Shown here: piece after piece, positions 1,948-44,881 of the stretch
How positions within the stretch are numbered: position 1 is the first letter of the stretch
Layout: the number at the start of each line of letters is the position of its first letter
Sequence record: PP920552.1
Direction: 5' to 3' (one strand)
DNA length: 44,881 nucleotides
Source of the DNA: Escherichia phage SM_A2
The notes under the pieces: generated by a model
Database searches by the model: none
Told to the model about the DNA's origin: nothing
Seen by the model: the letters and a program-made list of their open reading frames with translations, nothing else
Position numbers and translations under genes: made by a program

Positions 1948-3468
1948 ATGACCGTTAACGTTGACAACCAGCACCCACTCTATGCGCGTATCGCGCCAGA
2001 GTGGAAAATGATCCGGGATTGTGTAGCCGGGGAGCGCGCCGTTAAGGCGTGCGGCCCTTTATACCTGCCACATCCCGCCAGCGGCGACAATACCGACCCG
2101 AAATCACGGGCGCGGTATAAGGCGTATAAGCAACGCGCTGTATTCCTGAACGCCACCGCCCGCACACTTAACGCGCTGTTGGGCGTTGCCTTTGCAAAAC
2201 CGGTAAGTCTGGACCTTTCCGGGGCGATGGCTGACCTGATTGATGACGTAGACGGCAGCGGTATGCCATTGCCGCAACTCCTGCGCGGTGCTATGTCGGA
2301 AGTTCTGCAATCGGGCCGCGCTGGCTTTATGGTGGACTACGACCGCCAGGCCCACTTTGACGAACTGGGTAACGTAGTGCCGCAGACCGCCGCCGAGATG
2401 GCTGCGCACCGTCCGCTTATCCGCCTGTATACGGCAGAACAGATCATCAACTGGCGGCAGACCCACGGTGTTGACACGCTAATCGTGCTGAAGGAAACGG
2501 ATGAGATCAGCACCGAAGACCCGGACGACTTCGCAAACCACGAAGTAACCATCTGGACCGAGCTTCGCATGATTGACGGCAAGGCGCACGCCCGCCGCTG
2601 GTATTACAACGCTGACACGTCCGAGGTGCAAATGGACTTGCCGCGTGGCTTCACCCGCACCGACCTTGTGCCATTGGTGGATGCTTCCGGTAATGCGCTT
2701 ACGCAACTGCCATTTTGCTGGTGTGGCGCGGTGGACAACAACGCATCCCCTGACGCCGCGCCGCTGGCGGATATTGCGTCCATCAACATTAAGCACTACA
2801 ACGCCGAAGCGGACGTCGCCGAGATCGCGCACATTGTGGGCCAGCCGACCCTCGTTGCTACGGGCCTGACTCAATCATGGGCTGACAAAAACCTGAAGGG
2901 TGGCATTGCTCTCGGCGCAACTAAGGGCGTTATCCTGGGCCAGAACATGGACGCTAAACTTATTCAGGCCGAGGAGCGCAACTTGTCTGTTGCACTGTGT
3001 GAGCGCCGCGAGTTGCAAATGGCTAAACTTGGCGCGGCCCTGGTTGAGAAGGGGACCGCACCTAAGACGGCAACCGAAGCGGCCTACGATGCGCAGACTG
3101 ACAACAGTATCCTGTCACTGATTGCCGGTAACGTTGAGAAGGCTTTCAACCGGGCGCTGCAAATTGTCCAGCTATTCACTGGAGACACCGCCGACCAGCG
3201 CGTGACGCTGAACAAGTTCTACACCGAAATCTCGGTTGATGCGCAGCTTATGACTGCAATGATGGCGGGTGTGCAGACTGGTACGGTCCGACTTGCTGAC
3301 TTCATCAAGTGGATGATGGCGCAGGGCGTCATTGATGACTCGCAAACCGTCGAGCAGGTAGAAGACGAATTGCGAAATCAGAATCCATTGCCTCAAATGT
3401 CCACGGATGCGGTAGAATCTACCGAAGAAGACCCGGACAAGGTAGCGGACAATGGCGAGAACGATTAA
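1948..3468 (+). CDS. portal protein
   Basis: 506 aa ORF immediately after terminase with RBS AAGGAAACG before ATG at 1948; size and position typical of portal; acidic C-terminus. Confidence 0.75.
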   Translation: MTVNVDNQHPLYARIAPEWKMIRDCVAGERAVKACGPLYLPHPASGDNTDPKSRARYKAYKQRAVFLNATARTLNALLGVAFAKPVSLDLSGAMADLIDDVDGSGMPLPQLLRGAMSEVLQSGRAGFMVDYDRQAHFDELGNVVPQTAAEMAAHRPLIRLYTAEQIINWRQTHGVDTLIVLKETDEISTEDPDDFANHEVTIWTELRMIDGKAHARRWYYNADTSEVQMDLPRGFTRTDLVPLVDASGNALTQLPFCWCGAVDNNASPDAAPLADIASINIKHYNAEADVAEIAHIVGQPTLVATGLTQSWADKNLKGGIALGATKGVILGQNMDAKLIQAEERNLSVALCERRELQMAKLGAALVEKGTAPKTATEAAYDAQTDNSILSLIAGNVEKAFNRALQIVQLFTGDTADQRVTLNKFYTEISVDAQLMTAMMAGVQTGTVRLADFIKWMMAQGVIDDSQTVEQVEDELRNQNPLPQMSTDAVESTEEDPDKVADNGEND

Positions 3469-4555
3469 TCAACATCTGGCGGATCGCATGATCCGCCGTC
3501 ACATTTTCACCCAGCGCCTGAGCAATGACCAGGCGCGAAGGGTGCTGGCTATGTGGGAGAAGTTCCGACCCACGCTACTGGGGAAGCTGACCGAGTTACT
3601 TGATGGCAAAAAGGCCATGAATAACAAGGCGCTTACCACACTGTTGACGCAACTCGATAAGACCGTTAAGACGGAACTGCGCACCGAGTTTAAGGCGCTG
3701 GCGGAAAGCCTTCAGGAGTTTGCCGACTCGGAGGCCGATTATCTTGTCGATACACTAACGGCAGCGATCCAGCCCGCGGTCGCCGTGCCTGCGGTCGAGG
3801 TAGTGGGCGTTGTGACCGGTGCGCAGATTGCAGCGACGGCTATGAAAAACCCGTTCCAGGGCAATACGATGATGCAATGGCCTGACTCACTCTCTGAGTG
3901 GACCAGGACGCAGATCGGCAATCAGGTGCGCGCGGGCTTCATCCAGGGCAAGCCGACTATGGAAATAATTGCGGACGTAAGGCGCGCGCTCGGCGGTCGT
4001 AGTGCGCAGGCCATCTCAAGCGTGGTTAAGTCCGCAGTCAACCACTATGCGGCGACCGCCCGCGAATTAATGGTGAAAGCAAATGACGATATTCTCGAAG
4101 GTCGCCAATGGTTGGCTACATTGGACACTCATACCTCCCCTATGTGCCAGCTACGCGATCGCCTGTTTTATCCTGTTGACGTCACTCCCGACACCAAAGG
4201 GAAGCGCGGCGGAAAAGTGGTGGCTGGATCGCAGTATGGCGCTGGCCCGGGCAAGCTGCATTATTGCTGCCGTTCGACTGAGACGTGGAAAGTCAAAGGT
4301 ATGGAAGATTGGCCCAGTGGTAAGCGTCCGGCACTGAAGGCTGACGCGGGTCGATTGCTGAGTGAGCAAGTCGACGCGCAGACTGATTTCTTCTCATGGG
4401 TGCAGCGCCAGCCGCGCCATATTCTGGAGGAATTATACGGGGTGCAGCGCGCGGACCAGATTATGCGCGGCGTGAAAGTGCCGAAGATGTTCACCGACAC
4501 AGGCGAACTAATGACTATTGCACAGCTTAAAAACCGGGGGTTATGGCGTGATTAA
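3452..4555 (+). CDS. head morphogenesis protein (Mu F / SPP1 gp7-like, putative)
   Basis: 367 aa ORF overlapping the portal 3' end by 17 nt; conserved position between portal and scaffold. Confidence 0.6.
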   Translation: MARTINQHLADRMIRRHIFTQRLSNDQARRVLAMWEKFRPTLLGKLTELLDGKKAMNNKALTTLLTQLDKTVKTELRTEFKALAESLQEFADSEADYLVDTLTAAIQPAVAVPAVEVVGVVTGAQIAATAMKNPFQGNTMMQWPDSLSEWTRTQIGNQVRAGFIQGKPTMEIIADVRRALGGRSAQAISSVVKSAVNHYAATARELMVKANDDILEGRQWLATLDTHTSPMCQLRDRLFYPVDVTPDTKGKRGGKVVAGSQYGAGPGKLHYCCRSTETWKVKGMEDWPSGKRPALKADAGRLLSEQVDAQTDFFSWVQRQPRHILEELYGVQRADQIMRGVKVPKMFTDTGELMTIAQLKNRGLWRD

Positions 4556-4856
4556 ATACGCAGCGATTGGATTGGTTATCGGCCTGGCGGTTGGCTTCTG
4601 GCTGGGGGACTCCTACCGTGCGGGCGTTGTGGCGAGAGCGGCGCAGGAAGCGCAAGCGAAAGCCCAACGGCAGCAAACTAAGGCTGTCGAGGGGACAGTG
4701 CAGGCCGAACAGGCCCGCGATGTGGAATACCGGACTATCACTAAAGAGGTTGTGAAATATGTTACGCGTCCTGACCGTACTGATTGCAGTTTTGATGATG
4801 AGCGCGTGCGGATCAAGCAACGTGCCATCGACGCCGCTAACCGAGTCGGTTTATAG
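4548..4856 (+). CDS. i-spanin (Rz-like inner-membrane spanin, putative)
   Basis: N-terminal TM helix YAAIGLVIGLAVGFWLG followed by a charged, coiled-coil-like periplasmic region; probable GTG start at 4548 with GGGGG 8 nt upstream (ORF track opens at TTG 4518); contains the embedded start of a lipoprotein gene in another frame. Confidence 0.5.
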   Translation: MIKYAAIGLVIGLAVGFWLGDSYRAGVVARAAQEAQAKAQRQQTKAVEGTVQAEQARDVEYRTITKEVVKYVTRPDRTDCSFDDERVRIKQRAIDAANRVGL

Positions 4857-4989
4857 ACCGCCTTGCACTTTTGAGAATGCCTCGGCAGATCCAGACGAAG
4901 ACTTGCTGGTTGATGTTAAAAATATGGAATGCGGGGCTAAGCTAAGGGCGCAAGTGCTGGAGTTGCAGAAAATAATTAGGGGGCCGTAA
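4759..4989 (+). CDS. o-spanin (Rz1-like outer-membrane lipoprotein, putative)
   Basis: ATG at 4759 with RBS AAGAGG; signal peptide MLRVLTVLIAVLMMSAC with lipobox-like Cys; short Pro/Cys-containing mature part; starts inside the i-spanin ORF in a different frame (overlapped Rz/Rz1 architecture). Confidence 0.55.
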   Translation: MLRVLTVLIAVLMMSACGSSNVPSTPLTESVYRPPCTFENASADPDEDLLVDVKNMECGAKLRAQVLELQKIIRGP

Positions 4990-5005
4990 TGGCCCCTTTT
5001 TTTTT
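4979..5005. terminator. bidirectional intrinsic terminator
   Basis: GGGGCC-GTAAT-GGCCCC hairpin followed by T9; lies between the convergent plus-strand spanin genes and minus-strand gene 5007-5771. Confidence 0.8.
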
Positions 5006-5006
5006 G

Positions 5007-5771
5007 TTAGCGCGGAATACCGCAGATTTCGTTTAACGTCTTCACGTCCAGCGCCACCGCCGTGGACTTCGGCTTGTCCTGGTATGGAATAAACTGTTCA
5101 ACTTCAGGCCACGCCTTGATCAGCTTCTTATCGGTATTGTGCATATCCAGCACGCCGGTAACAGTTAGTTTGAACGCATCATACTTAGCACGCAACTCGC
5201 GGCGGGCTTTGTCGTTACGGTCCAGGCGCTTACAGAAATCATGGTCTGCCGGGCAGTCTATACGACCGCGTGGCTTATATATCGGCAGCGCTTTCCCGTC
5301 GTCGTCGACTTCGCACACTGACGCTAACAAAATTTCCTCATACCCAGGCACAATATCGCCGAGGTCTGGAGACAGCTTATTCATGTATTTATACTCCCAG
5401 TATCCGCGATGTACTCGGAATCGGTACCCGTCTCCGCTCAATGACACGGTACGGACGTTTCCGCCTGCGTTGATTTCGAAAGTGGCGTCATAAACGCTGC
5501 CAATACCTTTTGGGCGGTCGGAGTCGAAACGATATGTAGCCTTATTGGTGTATACGCAAACGCCGTACATCTGCGACGGGTCATCGCCGATTGCTTCAAT
5601 GCGCGCACGTAGCTCGGCGAACGTATGAATGCCTACAGGCATACAGCGCAACGCAATGTCATACGCCAGGTCGCGAGAGTCCATCATGATTTTTTTGGCT
5701 TCAGTAGTGATTTCGTGGTCGCGCAGGATGTTAGCCAGAATCTGGTTTTTAATGTCTTTTGTCAGTCTCAT
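5007..5771 (-). CDS. hypothetical protein (accessory gene in head module)
   Basis: 254 aa ORF on the opposite strand to the surrounding structural genes; ATG at 5771 with GAGGA RBS; no motif recognised. Confidence 0.6.
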   Translation of the reverse strand: MRLTKDIKNQILANILRDHEITTEAKKIMMDSRDLAYDIALRCMPVGIHTFAELRARIEAIGDDPSQMYGVCVYTNKATYRFDSDRPKGIGSVYDATFEINAGGNVRTVSLSGDGYRFRVHRGYWEYKYMNKLSPDLGDIVPGYEEILLASVCEVDDDGKALPIYKPRGRIDCPADHDFCKRLDRNDKARRELRAKYDAFKLTVTGVLDMHNTDKKLIKAWPEVEQFIPYQDKPKSTAVALDVKTLNEICGIPR

Positions 5772-5815
5772 TTTCGTGTCCTCGTTGTTGGGGCTTTCGC
5801 CCCGTTTGGCTTGGT

Positions 5816-6130
5816 TTAGTTAAACTTGATGTTGCCACCGGTGGAAGTTAAGCGAGCGCATACGGCTTCAACGGCATCGACGCACATGAAATCGTTAAAG
5901 GCTTCTACCAGGGATTTGATGAAAGATGCCGGAACCAGACCGCAAGCCGGGTTATCGAAGGTTGCGGAATTGATTGCGGCCTTCGCTGCTTCAGTAGCAT
6001 TCATGCTCTGGCACAGATTCAGCGCTTCGGCGTTACGCATAGCATGAAAGGTGAAGGTTTTAGCTACGGTAGCTTTATTGAAACGGGTCATTGCTACGTC
6101 TACTGGAGTTGCTACGGTCATGTTAGTCAT
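5816..6130 (-). CDS. hypothetical protein (accessory gene in head module)
   Basis: 104 aa from the ATG at 6130, which has an AAGGA RBS 7 nt upstream (the ORF track extends to 6181); own promoter upstream; no motif recognised. Confidence 0.5.
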   Translation of the reverse strand: MTNMTVATPVDVAMTRFNKATVAKTFTFHAMRNAEALNLCQSMNATEAAKAAINSATFDNPACGLVPASFIKSLVEAFNDFMCVDAVEAVCARLTSTGGNIKFN

Positions 6131-6165
6131 CTTGTTTTCCTTCATATCTCTGTTGGTGTGCAACC

Positions 6166-6195
6166 AATATATTGCAACCAATACCCATATTGCAA
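6166..6195 (-). promoter_or_regulatory. sigma70-like promoter with ATTGGTTGCA motif (leftward)
   Basis: Read on the minus strand: TTGCAA (-35, fwd 6190-6195), 18-nt spacer containing ATTGGTTGCA, TATATT (-10, fwd 6166-6171); a second TGCAACCAAT copy at 6159-6168; upstream of gene 5816-6130. Confidence 0.5.
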
Positions 6196-7083: not shown

Positions 7084-8184
7084 ATGTCTTTAACAGTGTT
7101 CCAGCGTAAACTCGTCACCGCGGTTACGCAAATGATCCCCGACAACCTGAACGTGTTCAACGCTGCCGCTAACGGTGCTGTTGTTCTCGGTACGGGTGAA
7201 GTGCTGAAGGATGTTGTAGAAAAAATGTCCGTAGGCTTGATCGCCAACCTCGTTACCGACCGTAACGCCTACGCCCCTGTAGGTACTCCGGCGACCGCAA
7301 AAGTGCTGGCGCGTATGCTGACCAACTCAGTTAACCTTTCCGCGAAAGTGGGTCCGGTAGCAATCACTAAGGCTATGATGGCTAAGATCGAAACCAACGT
7401 TAACAGCGTTGCGGCTGAGATCGCGGCCCAGGCTACTCAAGCGATTATGCTGCACTACCTGAAAGCGGGTATCGGTGCGGGCAAAGCGGCTATCGAAAGC
7501 AACGCAGCGGCAAACTACACCCAACCGGCGCGCGTTGACGGCGTTGGCGGTCGTACCTTCCCGACCCTGGCAGACTTCCCGCTGGCAGCTTCCAAGTTCG
7601 GCGATCAGGCGTCTTTGATTAAATCCTGGTTTATGGACGGCGTTACCTGGGCAAACTTCATCGCATACCAGGCGCTCCCATCTGCCGAGCAGGTATTCGC
7701 GATCGGCGATCTGCAGGTAATGGGCGACGGCCTGGGTCGCCGTTTCATTATCTCCGATGCCGCGGCTGACGCGATGGGCGCGGGTAAAATGCTGGGTCTG
7801 GTCCCTGGCGCGGTTGCAGTTACCACCAACGGCCTTGATATGCTGGCGCAGGAAAAAGGCGGTAATGAGAACATCGAGCGCTGGTGGCAGGGCGAGTTCG
7901 ACTTCAACGTGGCTGTTAAAGGCTACCGTCTGAAGGCGTCCGCTCGTACCCCGATCGAAGGCGTCCGCTCGTTCAAGCTGTCAGATATCACCACTAAGGA
8001 TAACTGGGAGCTTGACCATGGCCAGGTAGACAACGCACCGGCAACCGTGCAGGACGTTGGCGCGGTGGGTGACGGCGATACTAAAGGCCGTCGTAAGACC
8101 CAGGCCGCGCAGGAAGTGCCGACCCGTAACATCAAGGAAACGGCTGGCGTACTGGTTACGCTGACTGCGACCACTGCGTCCTAA
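7084..8184 (+). CDS. major capsid protein
   Basis: 366 aa ORF after the scaffold gene and before a strong terminator; size and position typical of a major capsid protein. Confidence 0.8.
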   Translation: MSLTVFQRKLVTAVTQMIPDNLNVFNAAANGAVVLGTGEVLKDVVEKMSVGLIANLVTDRNAYAPVGTPATAKVLARMLTNSVNLSAKVGPVAITKAMMAKIETNVNSVAAEIAAQATQAIMLHYLKAGIGAGKAAIESNAAANYTQPARVDGVGGRTFPTLADFPLAASKFGDQASLIKSWFMDGVTWANFIAYQALPSAEQVFAIGDLQVMGDGLGRRFIISDAAADAMGAGKMLGLVPGAVAVTTNGLDMLAQEKGGNENIERWWQGEFDFNVAVKGYRLKASARTPIEGVRSFKLSDITTKDNWELDHGQVDNAPATVQDVGAVGDGDTKGRRKTQAAQEVPTRNIKETAGVLVTLTATTAS

Positions 8185-22433: not shown

Positions 22434-22451
22434 AAGCCCCGAAAGGGGCTT
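22434..22451. terminator. hairpin between convergent genes (weak bidirectional terminator)
   Basis: AAGCCCC-GAAA-GGGGCTT perfect hairpin; the T-tract is weak on both sides. Confidence 0.5.
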
Positions 22452-22668
22452 ATTTGCAGGTTGTGCTTTTGAAGTGGTCGACCGACACATACTGGAAGTT
22501 GAACGGATACCCCGCCTTGAGCATTTTGTGCCCGCTAAAGTCGGTGACACCGAACACCGGTACAGAATACTCCATACCACTATTCACATATGTTGCGTCG
22601 CAGATTTTTGATGGCATGTCGGCGCAGCCGGTCAAAAGAACAGCACAAATCATAATTAAGGTTTTCAT
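22450..22668 (-). CDS. small lipoprotein (Cor/Llp-like superinfection exclusion candidate)
   Basis: ATG at 22668 with AGGAGAT RBS; signal peptide MKTLIMICAVLLTGC with classical lipobox LLTG-C; about 57-aa mature part; minus-strand with own promoter, between J-like and tail fibre genes. Confidence 0.6.
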   Translation of the reverse strand: MKTLIMICAVLLTGCADMPSKICDATYVNSGMEYSVPVFGVTDFSGHKMLKAGYPFNFQYVSVDHFKSTTCK

Positions 22669-42091: not shown

Positions 42092-42126
42092 AGTCCCAGT
42101 GAGCTAAAACTTACTGGGACTTTTTT
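42092..42126 (+). terminator. intrinsic terminator directly abutting the holin start codon
   Basis: AGTCCCAGT-(12-nt loop)-ACTGGGACT hairpin followed by T6, ending 1 nt before ATG 42127. Confidence 0.6.
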
Positions 42127-42417
42127 ATGGATAAGCTAAACGAGTGGTTATTCGCCCTTGCGTGTCTTGCTGGTGGCTTCGTAGGCGCACGCATTCATGG
42201 CGAGGCAACGAAAGGGCCGTTGAACTTCGTTTTGTATGTGGTAGTTGGCTTCCTGTGTGCCATATTTGGCGCACCGGCTATTGCCGAGTGGGCTGGTTTG
42301 TCTGGTGAGCGCACTGTTGCCGGTTTGGGCTTCGTAACTGCCATCTTCTGGATGCCAATAGCTGACCGGATCCGGGAGACTATTGCGTCGTTCCGACTTC
42401 CGGGGGGTGCAAAATGA
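42127..42417 (+). CDS. holin (putative)
   Basis: 96 aa with three predicted TM helices; immediately upstream of a second membrane protein and the endolysin. Confidence 0.6.
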   Translation: MDKLNEWLFALACLAGGFVGARIHGEATKGPLNFVLYVVVGFLCAIFGAPAIAEWAGLSGERTVAGLGFVTAIFWMPIADRIRETIASFRLPGGAK

Positions 42418-42659
42418 TTATCTCCGTCCTGTTGTTTGTTATCATAGGGGCTTCGTCCCTGTTTAACGTGTATGCGCCGTCCGTTCAGGATGGCTTCTTC
42501 GGTCGGGTGTTATATCTGCTAACAGCAATGACCTGTATTGTCGGGCTGTTGCAAACAGGAGACGTATCAGATACCACCTGGACCGCGTTAATCTGGCTGT
42601 TTGCATTGCGCACCCTGCGTAATGCTGTTTTGAATGGGGTAAAACATGCGATTCAGTGA
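42414..42659 (+). CDS. second holin / antiholin-like membrane protein
   Basis: 81 aa, 2-3 hydrophobic helices; ATGA-coupled to the holin; overlaps the endolysin start. Confidence 0.5.
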   Translation: MIISVLLFVIIGASSLFNVYAPSVQDGFFGRVLYLLTAMTCIVGLLQTGDVSDTTWTALIWLFALRTLRNAVLNGVKHAIQ

Positions 42660-43137
42660 TAACGGTCTACGATTTACGGCAGCCTGGGAGACTTTCAGCC
42701 CGGTGCCGTACTTCGCGACCAAGAAAGAGCAGGCCCGCGGCCTGTACACCTGGGGTTATGGGCACACCGGCACTAATCCGCCTCGAAGCATTACCCGTGC
42801 TGAAGCTCTGGAACTACTCAAGCGAGATGTGGCGTATGCCGAGGACTGGGTGAACAAATACGCACATCCGAGCATTAACCAGGCGCAATTCGACGCGCTG
42901 GTGGACCTGGTAATCAATGCCGGTCCTGGTCCGATCGTGCCGGACAACATTGCCAACGACTTTGACGATGCGGTGCGACTGGGAGACTGGGCGAAGGTCC
43001 GTGCTACTCTGCCGCAGTTCCGCAAGCAAGGCGGGTCGGTGCTCTTAGGTCTGGTGCGCCGTGCAATCGGCAGACAGGCGTTGTTTGATGGTAAGCAGTG
43101 GGACGTTGCCGAGAAAATCGGGCGAAACGCCGCATAA
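42646..43137 (+). CDS. endolysin (phage lysozyme-type)
   Basis: 163 aa; N-terminal catalytic-region pattern (WETF ... GLYTWGYGHTG) typical of T4/P21-type lysozymes; no signal sequence seen. Confidence 0.85.
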   Translation: MRFSDNGLRFTAAWETFSPVPYFATKKEQARGLYTWGYGHTGTNPPRSITRAEALELLKRDVAYAEDWVNKYAHPSINQAQFDALVDLVINAGPGPIVPDNIANDFDDAVRLGDWAKVRATLPQFRKQGGSVLLGLVRRAIGRQALFDGKQWDVAEKIGRNAA

Positions 43138-43152
43138 TACGAGGAACACAGT

Positions 43153-43320
43153 ATGTTAAAAAGCATTCTTGATCATAACGCCGACGCACTTGCTGCACTG
43201 GCTAAAACAGAAGATCCGGGCGCGCGAGCTATCATCGCGGATACTATCAACCACGCTGGGGTCTTCGATGCGAAGCTGCCAAGCCCACCCCCACCGGAAG
43301 ACCCAGTCCCCGCCGCGTAA
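43153..43320 (+). CDS. hypothetical small protein
   Basis: 55 aa ORF after the endolysin, Pro-rich C-terminus; below the ORF-track size cut-off. Confidence 0.3.
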   Translation: MLKSILDHNADALAALAKTEDPGARAIIADTINHAGVFDAKLPSPPPPEDPVPAA

Positions 43321-43327
43321 ACTATCA

Positions 43328-43351
43328 AGCCCGGTTAATTCCGGGCTTTTT
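43328..43351 (+). terminator. intrinsic terminator after lysis cassette
   Basis: AGCCCGG-TTAATT-CCGGGCT hairpin followed by T4-5. Confidence 0.75.
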
Positions 43352-43412: not shown

Positions 43413-44555
43413 ATGCACCCGCAAACTAAAATCACCGACGAGCAATTGATCGCCGAGTTGCAATCCGGCACTACCTCGAAAGATATTGCGAAGAAATACG
43501 GGATTGCCCTACGCAATGTCTATATGCGGAAAGCCCGCCTATCGAAGAAAGGGATTGGACACGGCAACGATGCCGTAATCCGCAAGCGCGTTGCCGATGG
43601 CTTTGGGGTTAAGCGCGTATCGGCCCTGGTGCGCGGCAATGGCGAAGAGGTCATGTCGTGGGTTATTACGGAGCAGGACAAGGAGCGCCAACTCGAAGCT
43701 ATGCGCGCTGTTGTCGCGGGTATGAACAGCGAAATCACACCGGCAGCGCCAGTAAACGCCCCTCCAGTACCGATCCAGGCGCTCGACTTGCTCAACCTGT
43801 ACACCGTGTCAGACTTCCACTTGGGCATGTTGGCATGGGGCGAGGAGACTGGCGAAGACTGGGATATGGCGATCGCCGAAGACCTGTTCTACCGCTGGTT
43901 TGTAGAAGCCTTCGCACGCGCACCAGACGCAGGCACTGCCGTAATTAATATCCTCGGGGATATGGCCCACTTTGATAGCCTCGATGCTGTCACTCCGGCA
44001 AGTGGTCACGTACTGGACGCCGACACCCGCTACCAGAAACTGGTCCGATACATGATTCGCATGGTGCGCAACGTCGTCGAACTGGCGCTGCAAAAACACC
44101 ACAAAGTCAAACTGCTAATCGTCCAGGGAAATCATGACGAGTCGGGTATGATTTGGCTGGCTGAGATGTTCAATACTCTGTACGAGAACGAGCCGCGCGT
44201 CGATGTAGATACGTCACCGGACGTATACAAGATGGTGCAGCACGGTAAGACCACGCTGTTTTTCCACCACGGGCACAAAGCGCGATTCGATGCTATCGAG
44301 CCGGTTATGATTTCTAAATTCAGACAGGCTTTCGGGTCCAGTGAGTATAGCTACGCGCACGTAGGCCACTTGCACCACCAGAAGATTGTAGAATCCCGCA
44401 ACATGATTGTTGAACAGCACCGGACGCTCGCAGCGAAAGACGCCTACGCCAGTCGTGGCGGTTGGATGTCAGGTCGTAGTGCCAACGTCATTACCTACAG
44501 CGCCAACTACGGCGAAGTTGCACGCTTAACCATTAGCCCGGAAATGTTGAAATGA
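43413..44555 (+). CDS. calcineurin-like metallophosphoesterase with N-terminal HTH-like domain
   Basis: 380 aa; phosphoesterase motifs VSDFHLG (D-x-H), ILGDMAHFD (GD-x-x-D), QGNHDE (GNH[DE]) plus later His pairs; N-terminal 40 aa HTH-like. Confidence 0.7.
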   Translation: MHPQTKITDEQLIAELQSGTTSKDIAKKYGIALRNVYMRKARLSKKGIGHGNDAVIRKRVADGFGVKRVSALVRGNGEEVMSWVITEQDKERQLEAMRAVVAGMNSEITPAAPVNAPPVPIQALDLLNLYTVSDFHLGMLAWGEETGEDWDMAIAEDLFYRWFVEAFARAPDAGTAVINILGDMAHFDSLDAVTPASGHVLDADTRYQKLVRYMIRMVRNVVELALQKHHKVKLLIVQGNHDESGMIWLAEMFNTLYENEPRVDVDTSPDVYKMVQHGKTTLFFHHGHKARFDAIEPVMISKFRQAFGSSEYSYAHVGHLHHQKIVESRNMIVEQHRTLAAKDAYASRGGWMSGRSANVITYSANYGEVARLTISPEMLK

Positions 44556-44764
44556 TTAGACAAATATTCATGAGCACGCAGGCCGATCGCCTGAAAGAAC
44601 TACGCAAACAACTCGAAGGCTTGCGCCGATTCGAACGAACGGCAGCGGCGGTAGGCATGTCTATCAGCGAACGGATCGAGATACTATCGCAAATACGCTA
44701 CACAGAAGGCGCGATAAGAGAAGTACAAAGCATGTTAACCCGATACTACGGGCGTGACGTTTAA
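44552..44764 (+). CDS. hypothetical protein
   Basis: 70 aa; ATGA-coupled to the phosphoesterase; coiled-coil-like; followed by a T-rich putative terminator (about 44768-44797). Confidence 0.45.
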   Translation: MIRQIFMSTQADRLKELRKQLEGLRRFERTAAAVGMSISERIEILSQIRYTEGAIREVQSMLTRYYGRDV

Positions 44765-44881
44765 CCCTCCCAGCCTGCCGATTTGGTGGGCTTTTTTGTG
44801 CCTGTTATAATCCCAATTAGATGGCAGGGCCGTCTCCTATGTTGCCGATGGTCGGCGCATATGCACAAAAGGGCTTATATC

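Follow-up and report, generated by a model that had tools for sequence, protein, structure and literature searches.

The lysis genes of Escherichia phage SM_A2 raise the question of which genes encode its spanins and why these lie apart from the holin and endolysin. The window, meaning the whole 44,881-nt stretch of record PP920552.1 that was analysed, comprises the entire genome of a Dhillonvirus (HK578/SO-1-like coliphage), opened at terS. A preliminary description read two small genes downstream of a head-morphogenesis gene as an overlapped i-spanin/o-spanin pair of the Rz/Rz1 type, placed about 37 kb from the holin and endolysin in an uncommon, split layout. The features of the locus are listed below.

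3452..4555, + strand: head-morphogenesis gene (SPP1 gp7 / Mu F-like), from phrog_241 'head morphogenesis', E=1.5e-115
4548..4856, + strand: predicted i-spanin gene (Rz-like), 102 aa, GTG start, from PHROG profiles, Jersey gp09 homology and hydropathy
4759..4989, + strand: predicted o-spanin gene (Rz1-like), 76 aa, ATG start, from PHROG profiles, lipobox and Jersey gp10 homology
4759..4856, + strand: dual-coding overlap of 98 nt, frame offset 1
4978..4998, both strands: bidirectional intrinsic-terminator-like hairpin, from the terminator scan (GGGGCC-GUAAU-GGCCCC, then U9)

The first gene of the pair has a Shine-Dalgarno-like GGGGG run 7 nt upstream of its GTG, which overlaps the stop of the head-morphogenesis gene by 8 nt (GTGATTAA). 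A start at TTG 4518, giving 112 aa, was rejected because it lacks a Shine-Dalgarno-like sequence upstream, and is also disfavoured by the annotated relatives examined, which start at the equivalent of GTG 4548. The N-terminus of the product is hydrophobic over residues 1-20 (MIKYAAIGLVIGLAVGFWLG; Kyte-Doolittle 17-residue mean 1.95), a segment conserved in all 18 Dhillonvirus genomes compared. The hydropathy maximum covers residues 1-17, with a transmembrane domain (TMD) at approximately residues 3-20 and no second hydrophobic stretch in the 102 aa, and type II topology (N-in, C-out) is the probable arrangement. Charged residues and Gln abound in the remainder (10 R, 5 K, 6 D, 6 E and 8 Q), so that hydropathy and composition bear out the N-terminal anchor and charged domain described at the outset. 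The single Cys of the charged part, residue 80, lies within the linker TRPDRTDCSFD, which would join a long helix (alpha1) to a short one (alpha2) in the predicted periplasmic layout. An AF2 single-sequence model with a low mean pLDDT of 62.9 places helices at residues 3-72 and 84-99 with a break at 73-83, a pattern that agrees with the helix-linker-helix prediction published for the short second subfamily of Jersey i-spanins (PMC6139136). The protein matches phrog_2536 'Rz-like spanin' (E=8e-35) as well as phrog_1152 and phrog_8821, and its homologue in the GenBank record of phage GeorgBuechner is labelled 'i-spanin'.

The second gene starts inside the first in another frame, as initially reported, with an AGAGG Shine-Dalgarno-like site 9 nt 5' of its ATG. 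Its product begins with MLRVLTVLIAVLMMSA followed directly by CG, which matches a PROSITE-style lipobox pattern; specifically, a signal peptide ends in the lipobox LMMSA ahead of Cys17, the predicted site of lipidation. The +2 residue is Gly and not Asp, the residue of inner-membrane retention. The mature protein would comprise 60 aa with 6 Pro, Cys36 and Cys58. Two profiles, both named 'Rz-like spanin', match the protein (phrog_5672, E=1.2e-25; phrog_1267, E=1.4e-11), and its homologues in GeorgBuechner and RuthEpting_Bas85 are labelled 'o-spanin' or 'Rz-like spanin'. In a Pfam search no model matched either protein of the pair; only the PHROG profiles do so.

The architecture of the pair is that of the 'overlapped' class. 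The second gene runs in the +1 frame relative to the first and continues 133 nt beyond its stop, and the overlap encodes residues 71-102 of the i-spanin (linker, alpha2 and C-terminus) together with residues 1-33 of the o-spanin (signal peptide, lipobox and N-terminal linker). Across the 18 Dhillonvirus genomes of the conservation sample, both reading frames are intact, the o-spanin ATG is invariant, the lipobox reads [ML][ST]AC, and all four Cys (the lipobox Cys, i-spanin Cys80, and o-spanin Cys36 and Cys58) are unchanged. The overlap measures 119 nt in 11 of the 18 relatives because the i-spanin there has 109 aa, as opposed to the 102-aa variant with its 98-nt overlap found here. Variable sites at codon positions 1/2/3 number 23/12/46 in the part of the i-spanin gene outside the overlap and, in its own frame, 14/8/30 in the part of the o-spanin gene downstream of it. 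This own-frame codon periodicity in each gene shows, at the level of sequence comparison, purifying selection on both. Additionally, mean site entropy at 'third' positions drops from 0.52 and 0.55 in the flanks that code in one frame only to 0.29 and 0.23 within the overlap, which is consistent with constraint in both frames.

The relatives of the pair point to the same function. HK578, SO-1, EP23, JL1, SSL-2009a and EK99P-1 have been placed in the overlapped 'Jersey' spanin family, in its short second subfamily, where membership is defined by at least 40% identity over at least 40% of length (Kongari et al. 2018; PMC6139136). By BLASTP, the i-spanin shares 48% identity with Jersey gp09 across query residues 24-100 (E=4e-17), a stretch equal to 75% of its length, and the o-spanin 41% with Jersey gp10 across residues 2-75 (E=3e-17), so both fall within the family by this definition. 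Identity to Dhillonvirus (HK578-group) members is 86-94% for the i-spanin and 67-100% for the o-spanin, which reaches 96% with the SO-1 o-spanin. Spanin homologues occur in approximately 640-680 phage records, those of the o-spanin in other genera at 28-41% identity, and the BASEL records, annotated with SpaninDataBase, name both an i-spanin and an o-spanin. Distant homologues of both proteins, in the same overlapped architecture, are present in Klebsiella phage VLCpiS13d (E=3e-16 and 1e-8). Sequence features and family assignment together make it highly probable that 4548-4856 and 4759-4989 encode the two-component spanin of Dhillonvirus, of the overlapped Jersey family, and the Rz/Rz1-type pairing first proposed is thereby upheld by PHROG matches, Jersey gp09/gp10 homology, published family assignment and GenBank annotation. 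The literature searched yielded no report in which a Jersey-family or Dhillonvirus spanin had been tested experimentally, be it by complementation, for lipidation or through a deletion phenotype.

The distance of the pair from the other lysis genes depends on how the genome is drawn. The relevant features at the far end of the window are as follows.

42092-42121: terminator-like hairpin just upstream of holin 1, from the terminator scan
42127..42417, + strand: holin 1, from phrog_2359 'holin', E=8.5e-32
42414..42659, + strand: second holin or antiholin-like membrane protein, 81 aa, from phrog_2508 'holin', E=7.8e-28
42646..43137, + strand: endolysin, a soluble lysozyme, from Pfam Phage_lysozyme, E=7.6e-20, and phrog_7, E=1.5e-34
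43327-43348: terminator-like hairpin after the 55-aa ORF that follows the endolysin, from the terminator scan
44772-44792: terminator-like hairpin between endolysin and spanins, from the terminator scan

These phages package by a headful mechanism and have circularly permuted genomes (PMC9022532; PMC13348001). Since such a genome has been opened here at terS, the separation of about 37 kb is an artefact of linearisation that exists in window coordinates only. On the circular map, 6.3 kb separate the endolysin stop from the i-spanin start, which follows downstream on the same strand. Seven genes occupy this interval: a small ORF, a phosphoesterase/exonuclease, a second small ORF, terS, terL, portal and the head-morphogenesis gene. 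The record of phage welsh is opened at a different point, and there the endolysin-spanin gap is contiguous and measures 6.2 kb. Even so, the spanins are not adjacent to holin or endolysin, and the lysis genes do not form a contiguous cassette of the lambda SRRzRz1 type. Within the holin-holin-endolysin cassette and beside it, a six-frame scan for lipoboxes, run over the whole window, turned up nothing spanin-like, in keeping with the original observation; the sole other credible lipoprotein that the scan returned is a Cor-like gene at 22450-22668 on the reverse strand. The endolysin itself has no N-terminal SAR or TMD. The 55-aa ORF at 43153-43320 was considered as a spanin or u-spanin and rejected, as it has no TMD and no lipobox and belongs to a PHROG of unknown function.

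Two other readings of the locus deserve consideration. According to one of them, 4548-4856 encodes a membrane- or virion-associated head-assembly factor, and 4759-4989 an unrelated small lipoprotein with a role in superinfection exclusion or as a moron. Such a view draws on the position of the genes in a packaging/head string, on the apparent translational coupling to the head-morphogenesis gene, on the label 'hypothetical protein' in many GenBank records, and on the occurrence in the same genome of phage lipoproteins with other roles, such as the Cor-like one. Nevertheless, it is very unlikely, given that profile and pairwise searches alike assign both proteins to spanin families, that the combination of TMD protein and overlapped lipoprotein has been kept across genera, and that the homologous pair of VLCpiS13d sits beside endolysin and holin and not beside head genes; moreover, the genome would otherwise have no spanin. 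The conservation data bear on the other reading, in which the i-spanin frame alone is a gene, while the lipoprotein ORF overlapping it is open by chance and goes untranslated. Several GenBank records that annotate one ORF only, including that of welsh, where the o-spanin CDS is absent, would fit this reading. Nonetheless, gene callers very often overlook o-spanins, with 196 left unannotated in the set of Kongari et al. (PMC6139136). Against a chance frame stand the 133 nt that code solely in the o-spanin frame with their 14/8/30 distribution of variable sites, the invariance of the ORF, ATG, lipobox Cys and two further Cys in 18/18 genomes, the matches to PHROG o-spanin families, the homologues in other genera, with identities as low as 28-41%, and the AGAGG ribosome-binding site. 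An untranslated frame is therefore even less probable than a head-assembly factor.

With the spanin reading preferred, the surroundings of the pair suggest how it may be expressed. The 8-nt overlap between the stop of the head-morphogenesis gene and the GTG suggests that translation of the i-spanin is coupled to that gene. The hairpin at 4978-4998 folds with -18.1 kcal/mol (z = -3.2) and carries the o-spanin stop codon within its loop. It closes the string of genes from terS to the spanins and parts it from the convergent gene 5007-5771 on the reverse strand, and the pair thus lies between a head-morphogenesis gene and a terminator-like element, as had been described. In Dhillonvirus, the spanins are then followed by a two-gene reverse-strand insert, consisting of Nmad5 and a gene of no assigned function. 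The terminator scan of the terS-to-spanin string found no site comparable in strength to this hairpin, and the number of terminator-like sites in the consensus scans is no higher than shuffle expectation in either scanned region. A promoter scan returned no above-chance sigma-70-like site that would mark the start of a spanin transcript. The operon structure of the string, as drawn from consensus terminator scans only, is accordingly putative, and late expression of the pair appears probable from the 8-nt overlap, the lack of a comparable terminator between terS and the spanins, and the hairpin that ends the unit.

The placement at the end of the string might also reflect functional coupling and not historical accident, with spanin dosage or timing tied to packaging and early head assembly, or with a second, membrane-tethering role of the i-spanin in head assembly. 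This idea, which is improbable, is based on the apparent translational coupling and on a placement common to Dhillonvirus, Jerseyvirus and Kagunavirus; the contiguous cassette in which VLCpiS13d carries the same spanin family is set against it. In the version with dosage or timing tied to packaging, the capacity for outer-membrane disruption would scale with particle production.

By the lambda Rz/Rz1 paradigm, the two-component spanin would act at the end of the lytic cycle as follows. The N-terminal TMD would anchor the i-spanin in the inner membrane, with the helical domain projecting into the periplasm, and the o-spanin would be exported, lipid-modified at Cys17 and, because its +2 residue is Gly and not Asp, sorted to the inner leaflet of the outer membrane. 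The C-terminal parts of both proteins would bind to each other, forming a periplasm-spanning complex threaded through the peptidoglycan mesh, in which homotypic intermolecular disulfides are probable at i-spanin Cys80 and at o-spanin Cys36 and Cys58. The holins (42127-42659) would provide the trigger and the endolysin (42646-43137) would degrade the murein, whereupon the freed spanin complexes would collapse, fusing the inner with the outer membrane and completing lysis. In this scheme, spanins would need only to accumulate before the holin fires, for which a place at the end of the packaging/early-head operon would suffice. A location outside the holin-endolysin cassette would be permissible for this reason.

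The spanin pair and its split layout are already known and published for this phage group. The pair completes the predicted lysis set of SM_A2, namely two holins, an endolysin and a two-component spanin, and the analysis is of use for curation, since many GenBank records of Dhillonvirus carry one or both genes as 'hypothetical' or omit the o-spanin. It also calls for caution in genome scans, where an arbitrary opening at terS can overstate distances in circularly permuted phage genomes. Beyond correct annotation, its importance is small.

Among known systems, the Jersey family is the closest, and nothing of substance separates the SM_A2 pair from it. The two share the +1 overlap, a predicted helix-linker-helix form of the i-spanin, a mature o-spanin with two conserved Cys and a genomic slot behind the head-morphogenesis gene, although the Jersey i-spanin is longer (128 aa). 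Jersey and K1ind2 also show the same split as SM_A2, with the order holin-holin-endolysin, then terS-terL-portal-head morphogenesis, spanins and scaffold, and the spanin pair of phage Schulenberg (Guernseyvirinae) has been described in print as 'genetically separate' from holin/antiholin and endolysin (PMC6763661). The layout at first considered uncommon is thus the conserved one of Dhillonvirus, Jerseyvirus and Kagunavirus. In the Guernseyvirinae (Jerseyvirus, Kagunavirus), a homologous overlapped pair likewise occupies the head module, where it is set off from the head-morphogenesis gene by a Hoc-like decoration gene, sometimes accompanied by a small ORF, and is directly followed by the scaffold, whereas in Dhillonvirus the spanins abut the head-morphogenesis gene. 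In VLCpiS13d, the pair directly follows endolysin and holin, and the full cassette follows a head-morphogenesis gene. Only the spanins are related between this phage and SM_A2, apart from a weakly related endolysin (29% identity). An ancestral slot common to both phages was considered and cannot be claimed, as their head-morphogenesis proteins are without BLASTP similarity (E=0.7).

More distant systems share the design without the sequence. Like lambda Rz/Rz1, the SM_A2 pair would combine a type II inner-membrane protein that has a helical periplasmic domain with a small, Pro-rich outer-membrane lipoprotein in the +1 frame, both with periplasmic Cys and both presumed to act in membrane fusion after murein degradation; no sequence similarity between the two pairs is detectable. 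The i-spanin is much shorter here (102 aa versus 153 aa in lambda). Rz1 is fully embedded in Rz, while the SM_A2 o-spanin runs past the i-spanin stop in the manner of P2 LysB/LysC, and Rz/Rz1 directly follow S and R in one cassette, while the SM_A2 pair lies 6.3 kb downstream. PseT.3/PseT.2 of T4 represent the 'separated' (non-overlapping) class, and their sequence family is unrelated to that of the SM_A2 pair. All lysis genes of T4 are scattered, whereas SM_A2 keeps holin, holin and endolysin in one cassette, with only the spanins apart.

The overlapping genes at the end of the head-morphogenesis gene of Escherichia phage SM_A2 form a spanin pair that is already known, since the family has been published and several GenBank records annotate the genes. 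The features concerned are as follows.

3452-4555, + strand: head-morphogenesis gene (phrog_241, E=1.5e-115)
4548-4856, + strand: i-spanin candidate, GTG start, 102 aa
4759-4989, + strand: o-spanin candidate, ATG start, 76 aa, +1 frame relative to the i-spanin
4978-4998: GC-rich hairpin with U9; its loop includes the stop codon of the o-spanin (-18.1 kcal/mol, z = -3.2)
42127-43137: lysis cassette, comprising two holin-family genes (phrog_2359; phrog_2508) and a soluble lysozyme (Pfam Phage_lysozyme, phrog_7)
NC_071142.1, about 7394-7639 (6080-6325 in L005, Klebsiella phage VLCpiS13d): o-spanin ORF of that phage

The i-spanin GTG is preceded, 7 nt upstream, by a GGGGG run, and the 5' end of the gene shares 8 nt with the head-morphogenesis gene, spanning the TAA of the latter. 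Residues 1-20 are hydrophobic (MIKYAAIGLVIGLAVGFWLG); beyond them the protein is charged and Gln-rich, with its sole Cys at residue 80, and it matches the 'Rz-like spanin' profile phrog_2536 (E=8e-35). An AF2 single-sequence model of low confidence (pLDDT 62.9) places helices at 3-72 and 84-99 with a break at 73-83 around Cys80, a pattern consistent with the published description of the subfamily. The o-spanin ATG follows an AGAGG site by 9 nt, and the N-terminus of the protein, MLRVLTVLIAVLMMSA followed by CG, matches the lipobox pattern with Gly next to the Cys. The mature protein has 60 aa, including 6 Pro and 2 more Cys, and the profile matches are phrog_5672 (E=1.2e-25) and phrog_1267 (E=1.4e-11), both 'Rz-like spanin'; Pfam has no model for either spanin protein. 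The two genes have 98 nt in common and the o-spanin extends 133 nt beyond the i-spanin stop, which is the 'overlapped' spanin architecture. Both ORFs, with the hydrophobic N-terminus and charged remainder of one and the lipobox ORF starting inside it in the +1 frame, are confirmed at the coordinates listed.

Searches with tblastn returned homologues in 676 phage records for the i-spanin and 641 for the o-spanin, from Dhillonvirus, then Jerseyvirus, Kagunavirus and some Klebsiella and Serratia phages; annotated homologues are mostly named spanins. In pairwise BLASTP, the i-spanin is 48% identical to Salmonella phage Jersey gp09 (E=4e-17) and the o-spanin 41% identical to Jersey gp10 (E=3e-17). 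Kongari et al. (2018) assigned HK578, SO-1, EP23, JL1, SSL-2009a and EK99P-1, all Dhillonviruses, to the 'Jersey' i-/o-spanin families of the overlapped class, the Dhillonvirus members making up a second, shorter subfamily in which two helices are joined by a linker and two o-spanin cysteines are constant (PMC6139136). In GeorgBuechner, a BASEL Dhillonvirus record, the orthologues are 'i-spanin' 4549-4857 and 'o-spanin' 4760-4990; the BASEL paper used SpaninDataBase for spanin annotation (PMC8594841). The preliminary description, which had read the genes as an overlapped i-spanin/o-spanin pair, was correct on the PHROG matches, Jersey similarity, published family and GenBank annotation. A literature search found no member of this spanin family that had been tested experimentally.

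The homologous region (0.5 kb) of 17 further Dhillonvirus genomes, 78-93% identical, was aligned with the window (n=18). All 18 keep both ORFs open and show no variation in the two start codons (GTG and ATG), the lipobox Cys, Cys36 and Cys58 of the o-spanin or Cys80 of the i-spanin. Counting variable sites by codon position (1/2/3) gives 23/12/46 in the i-spanin-only part and 14/8/30 in the o-spanin-only part, read in the o-spanin frame. The third-position excess collapses inside the overlap (mean entropy 0.29 and 0.23 vs 0.52 and 0.55 in the flanks), as would be expected of two translated genes on shared DNA. A related pair occurs in VLCpiS13d, where gp16, annotated 'Rz-like spanin', is 33% identical to the window i-spanin (E=3e-16), and an unannotated 81-aa ORF that starts within gp16 and has the lipobox AISGC shares 28% identity with the o-spanin (E=1e-8). 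This pair is overlapped as in the window but lies directly downstream of endolysin and holin; the family is therefore also found in a canonical contiguous lysis cassette, a context that links it independently to lysis. That the 4548-4856 product is instead a head-assembly protein is very improbable, and that the 4759-4989 ORF goes untranslated is, if anything, slightly less credible: family matches, conservation of the pair across genera, the variation by codon position and the setting of the VLCpiS13d pair contradict both. The sequence shows overlapping, conserved genes of a catalogued spanin family, encoding a predicted TMD-anchored helical protein and a predicted outer-membrane-type lipoprotein, both with periplasmic cysteines.

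The i-spanin C-terminus (window region 4836-4880) occurs in two forms across the genus. Proteins of 102 aa (7/18 genomes) end in NRVGL, or in NGIGN in one genome (L017), and those of 109 aa (11/18: relatives L008-L014, L016, L018-L020) end in NGVGTATAVQVR, so that the dual-coding overlap is 98 or 119 nt. The dimorphism fits a published remark that the extreme C-terminus varies in the Jersey i-spanin family.

By megablast, 157 phage records match 3400-5900 at 80-95% identity, nearly all of them Dhillonvirus of Escherichia/Shigella. Dhillonviruses are HK578/SO-1-like siphoviruses. The 44,881-bp window opens at the terS (small terminase) start codon ATG, as do BASEL and other Dhillonvirus records; it is therefore a complete genome, linearised arbitrarily. 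Dhillonvirus genomes assemble as circles, with headful packaging from a pac site predicted (PMC9022532; PMC13348001). The separation of the spanins from holin and endolysin holds, but the earlier distance of about 37 kb does not: that figure arose from the linear representation, and the true value is about 6 kb. Counted across the junction, 44881 - 43137 + 4548 = 6.3 kb separate the endolysin stop (43137) from the i-spanin start, the stop lying upstream and on the same strand. The record of phage welsh opens elsewhere and has the genes in contiguous order (holin, holin, endolysin, small ORF, phosphoesterase, terS, terL, portal, head morphogenesis, i-spanin), with an endolysin-to-i-spanin gap of 6.2 kb. 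Of the 6.3-kb interval, the non-packaging part consists of 43413-44555 (+), encoding a 380-aa metallophosphoesterase/'DNA repair exonuclease' (phrog_704, E=7e-161), and two small ORFs of unknown function (43153-43320 and 44552-44764) between endolysin and terS; the rest is terS, terL, portal and the head-morphogenesis gene.

The lysis cassette is without a spanin, as had been proposed. The 55-aa ORF 3' of the endolysin (43153-43320) has no TMD or lipobox and matches an unknown-function PHROG, and a six-frame lipobox scan of the whole genome gave, besides the o-spanin, a single convincing lipoprotein, the Cor-like gene 22450-22668 (-). The latter encodes a 72-aa lipoprotein (MKTLIMICAVLLTG followed by C; phrog_1119 'Cor superinfection exclusion protein', E=8e-27) and sits between tail-fibre and receptor-binding genes.

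By analogy with the established lambda Rz/Rz1 paradigm, reviewed in the background section of Kongari et al. (PMC6139136), the i-spanin together with the o-spanin would form a periplasm-spanning complex restrained by murein, which, after holin triggering and endolysin action, would fuse the inner and outer membranes. The gene arrangement suggests that the pair is expressed alongside the genes for packaging and the early head, being translationally coupled to the head-morphogenesis gene, in a unit probably stopping at the 4978-4998 terminator. Terminator-like hairpins also occur between endolysin and terS (43327-43348 and 44772-44792), hinting that the holin-endolysin and terS-to-spanin units may be separate transcripts; they are consensus matches only, in a number no higher than shuffle expectation.

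In the head module, a two-gene reverse-strand insert separates the spanins from the scaffold gene; it is edged by the bidirectional hairpin 4978-4998 and a promoter-like site at 6195-6166 (-). The 254-aa product of gene 5007-5771 (-) matches Pfam Nmad5 at full length (nucleotide modification associated domain 5, E=1.2e-55; phrog_1965), and 5816-6181 (-) belongs to phrog_24635, of unknown function; both are 'hypothetical' in GenBank relatives. Jersey and K1ind2 (Guernseyvirinae) are without the insert, their scaffold gene lying directly 3' of the spanins.

A spanin pair split from the holin-endolysin cassette is a conserved, previously noted layout of this phage group. Jersey and K1ind2 share the window's plan: their holin-holin-endolysin genes precede terS by a few kb, and their spanin pair is flanked by head-morphogenesis or decoration genes on one side and the scaffold gene on the other. 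For Schulenberg, another phage of the Guernseyvirinae, a published paper describes the spanins as separate from the holin/antiholin and endolysin genes (PMC6763661). In a recent Dhillonvirus paper the holins are 0031 and 0032, the endolysin 0033 and the spanin 0040 (PMC12677095), and T4 provides the classical precedent, its spanins being unlinked from holin and endolysin (PMC6139136).
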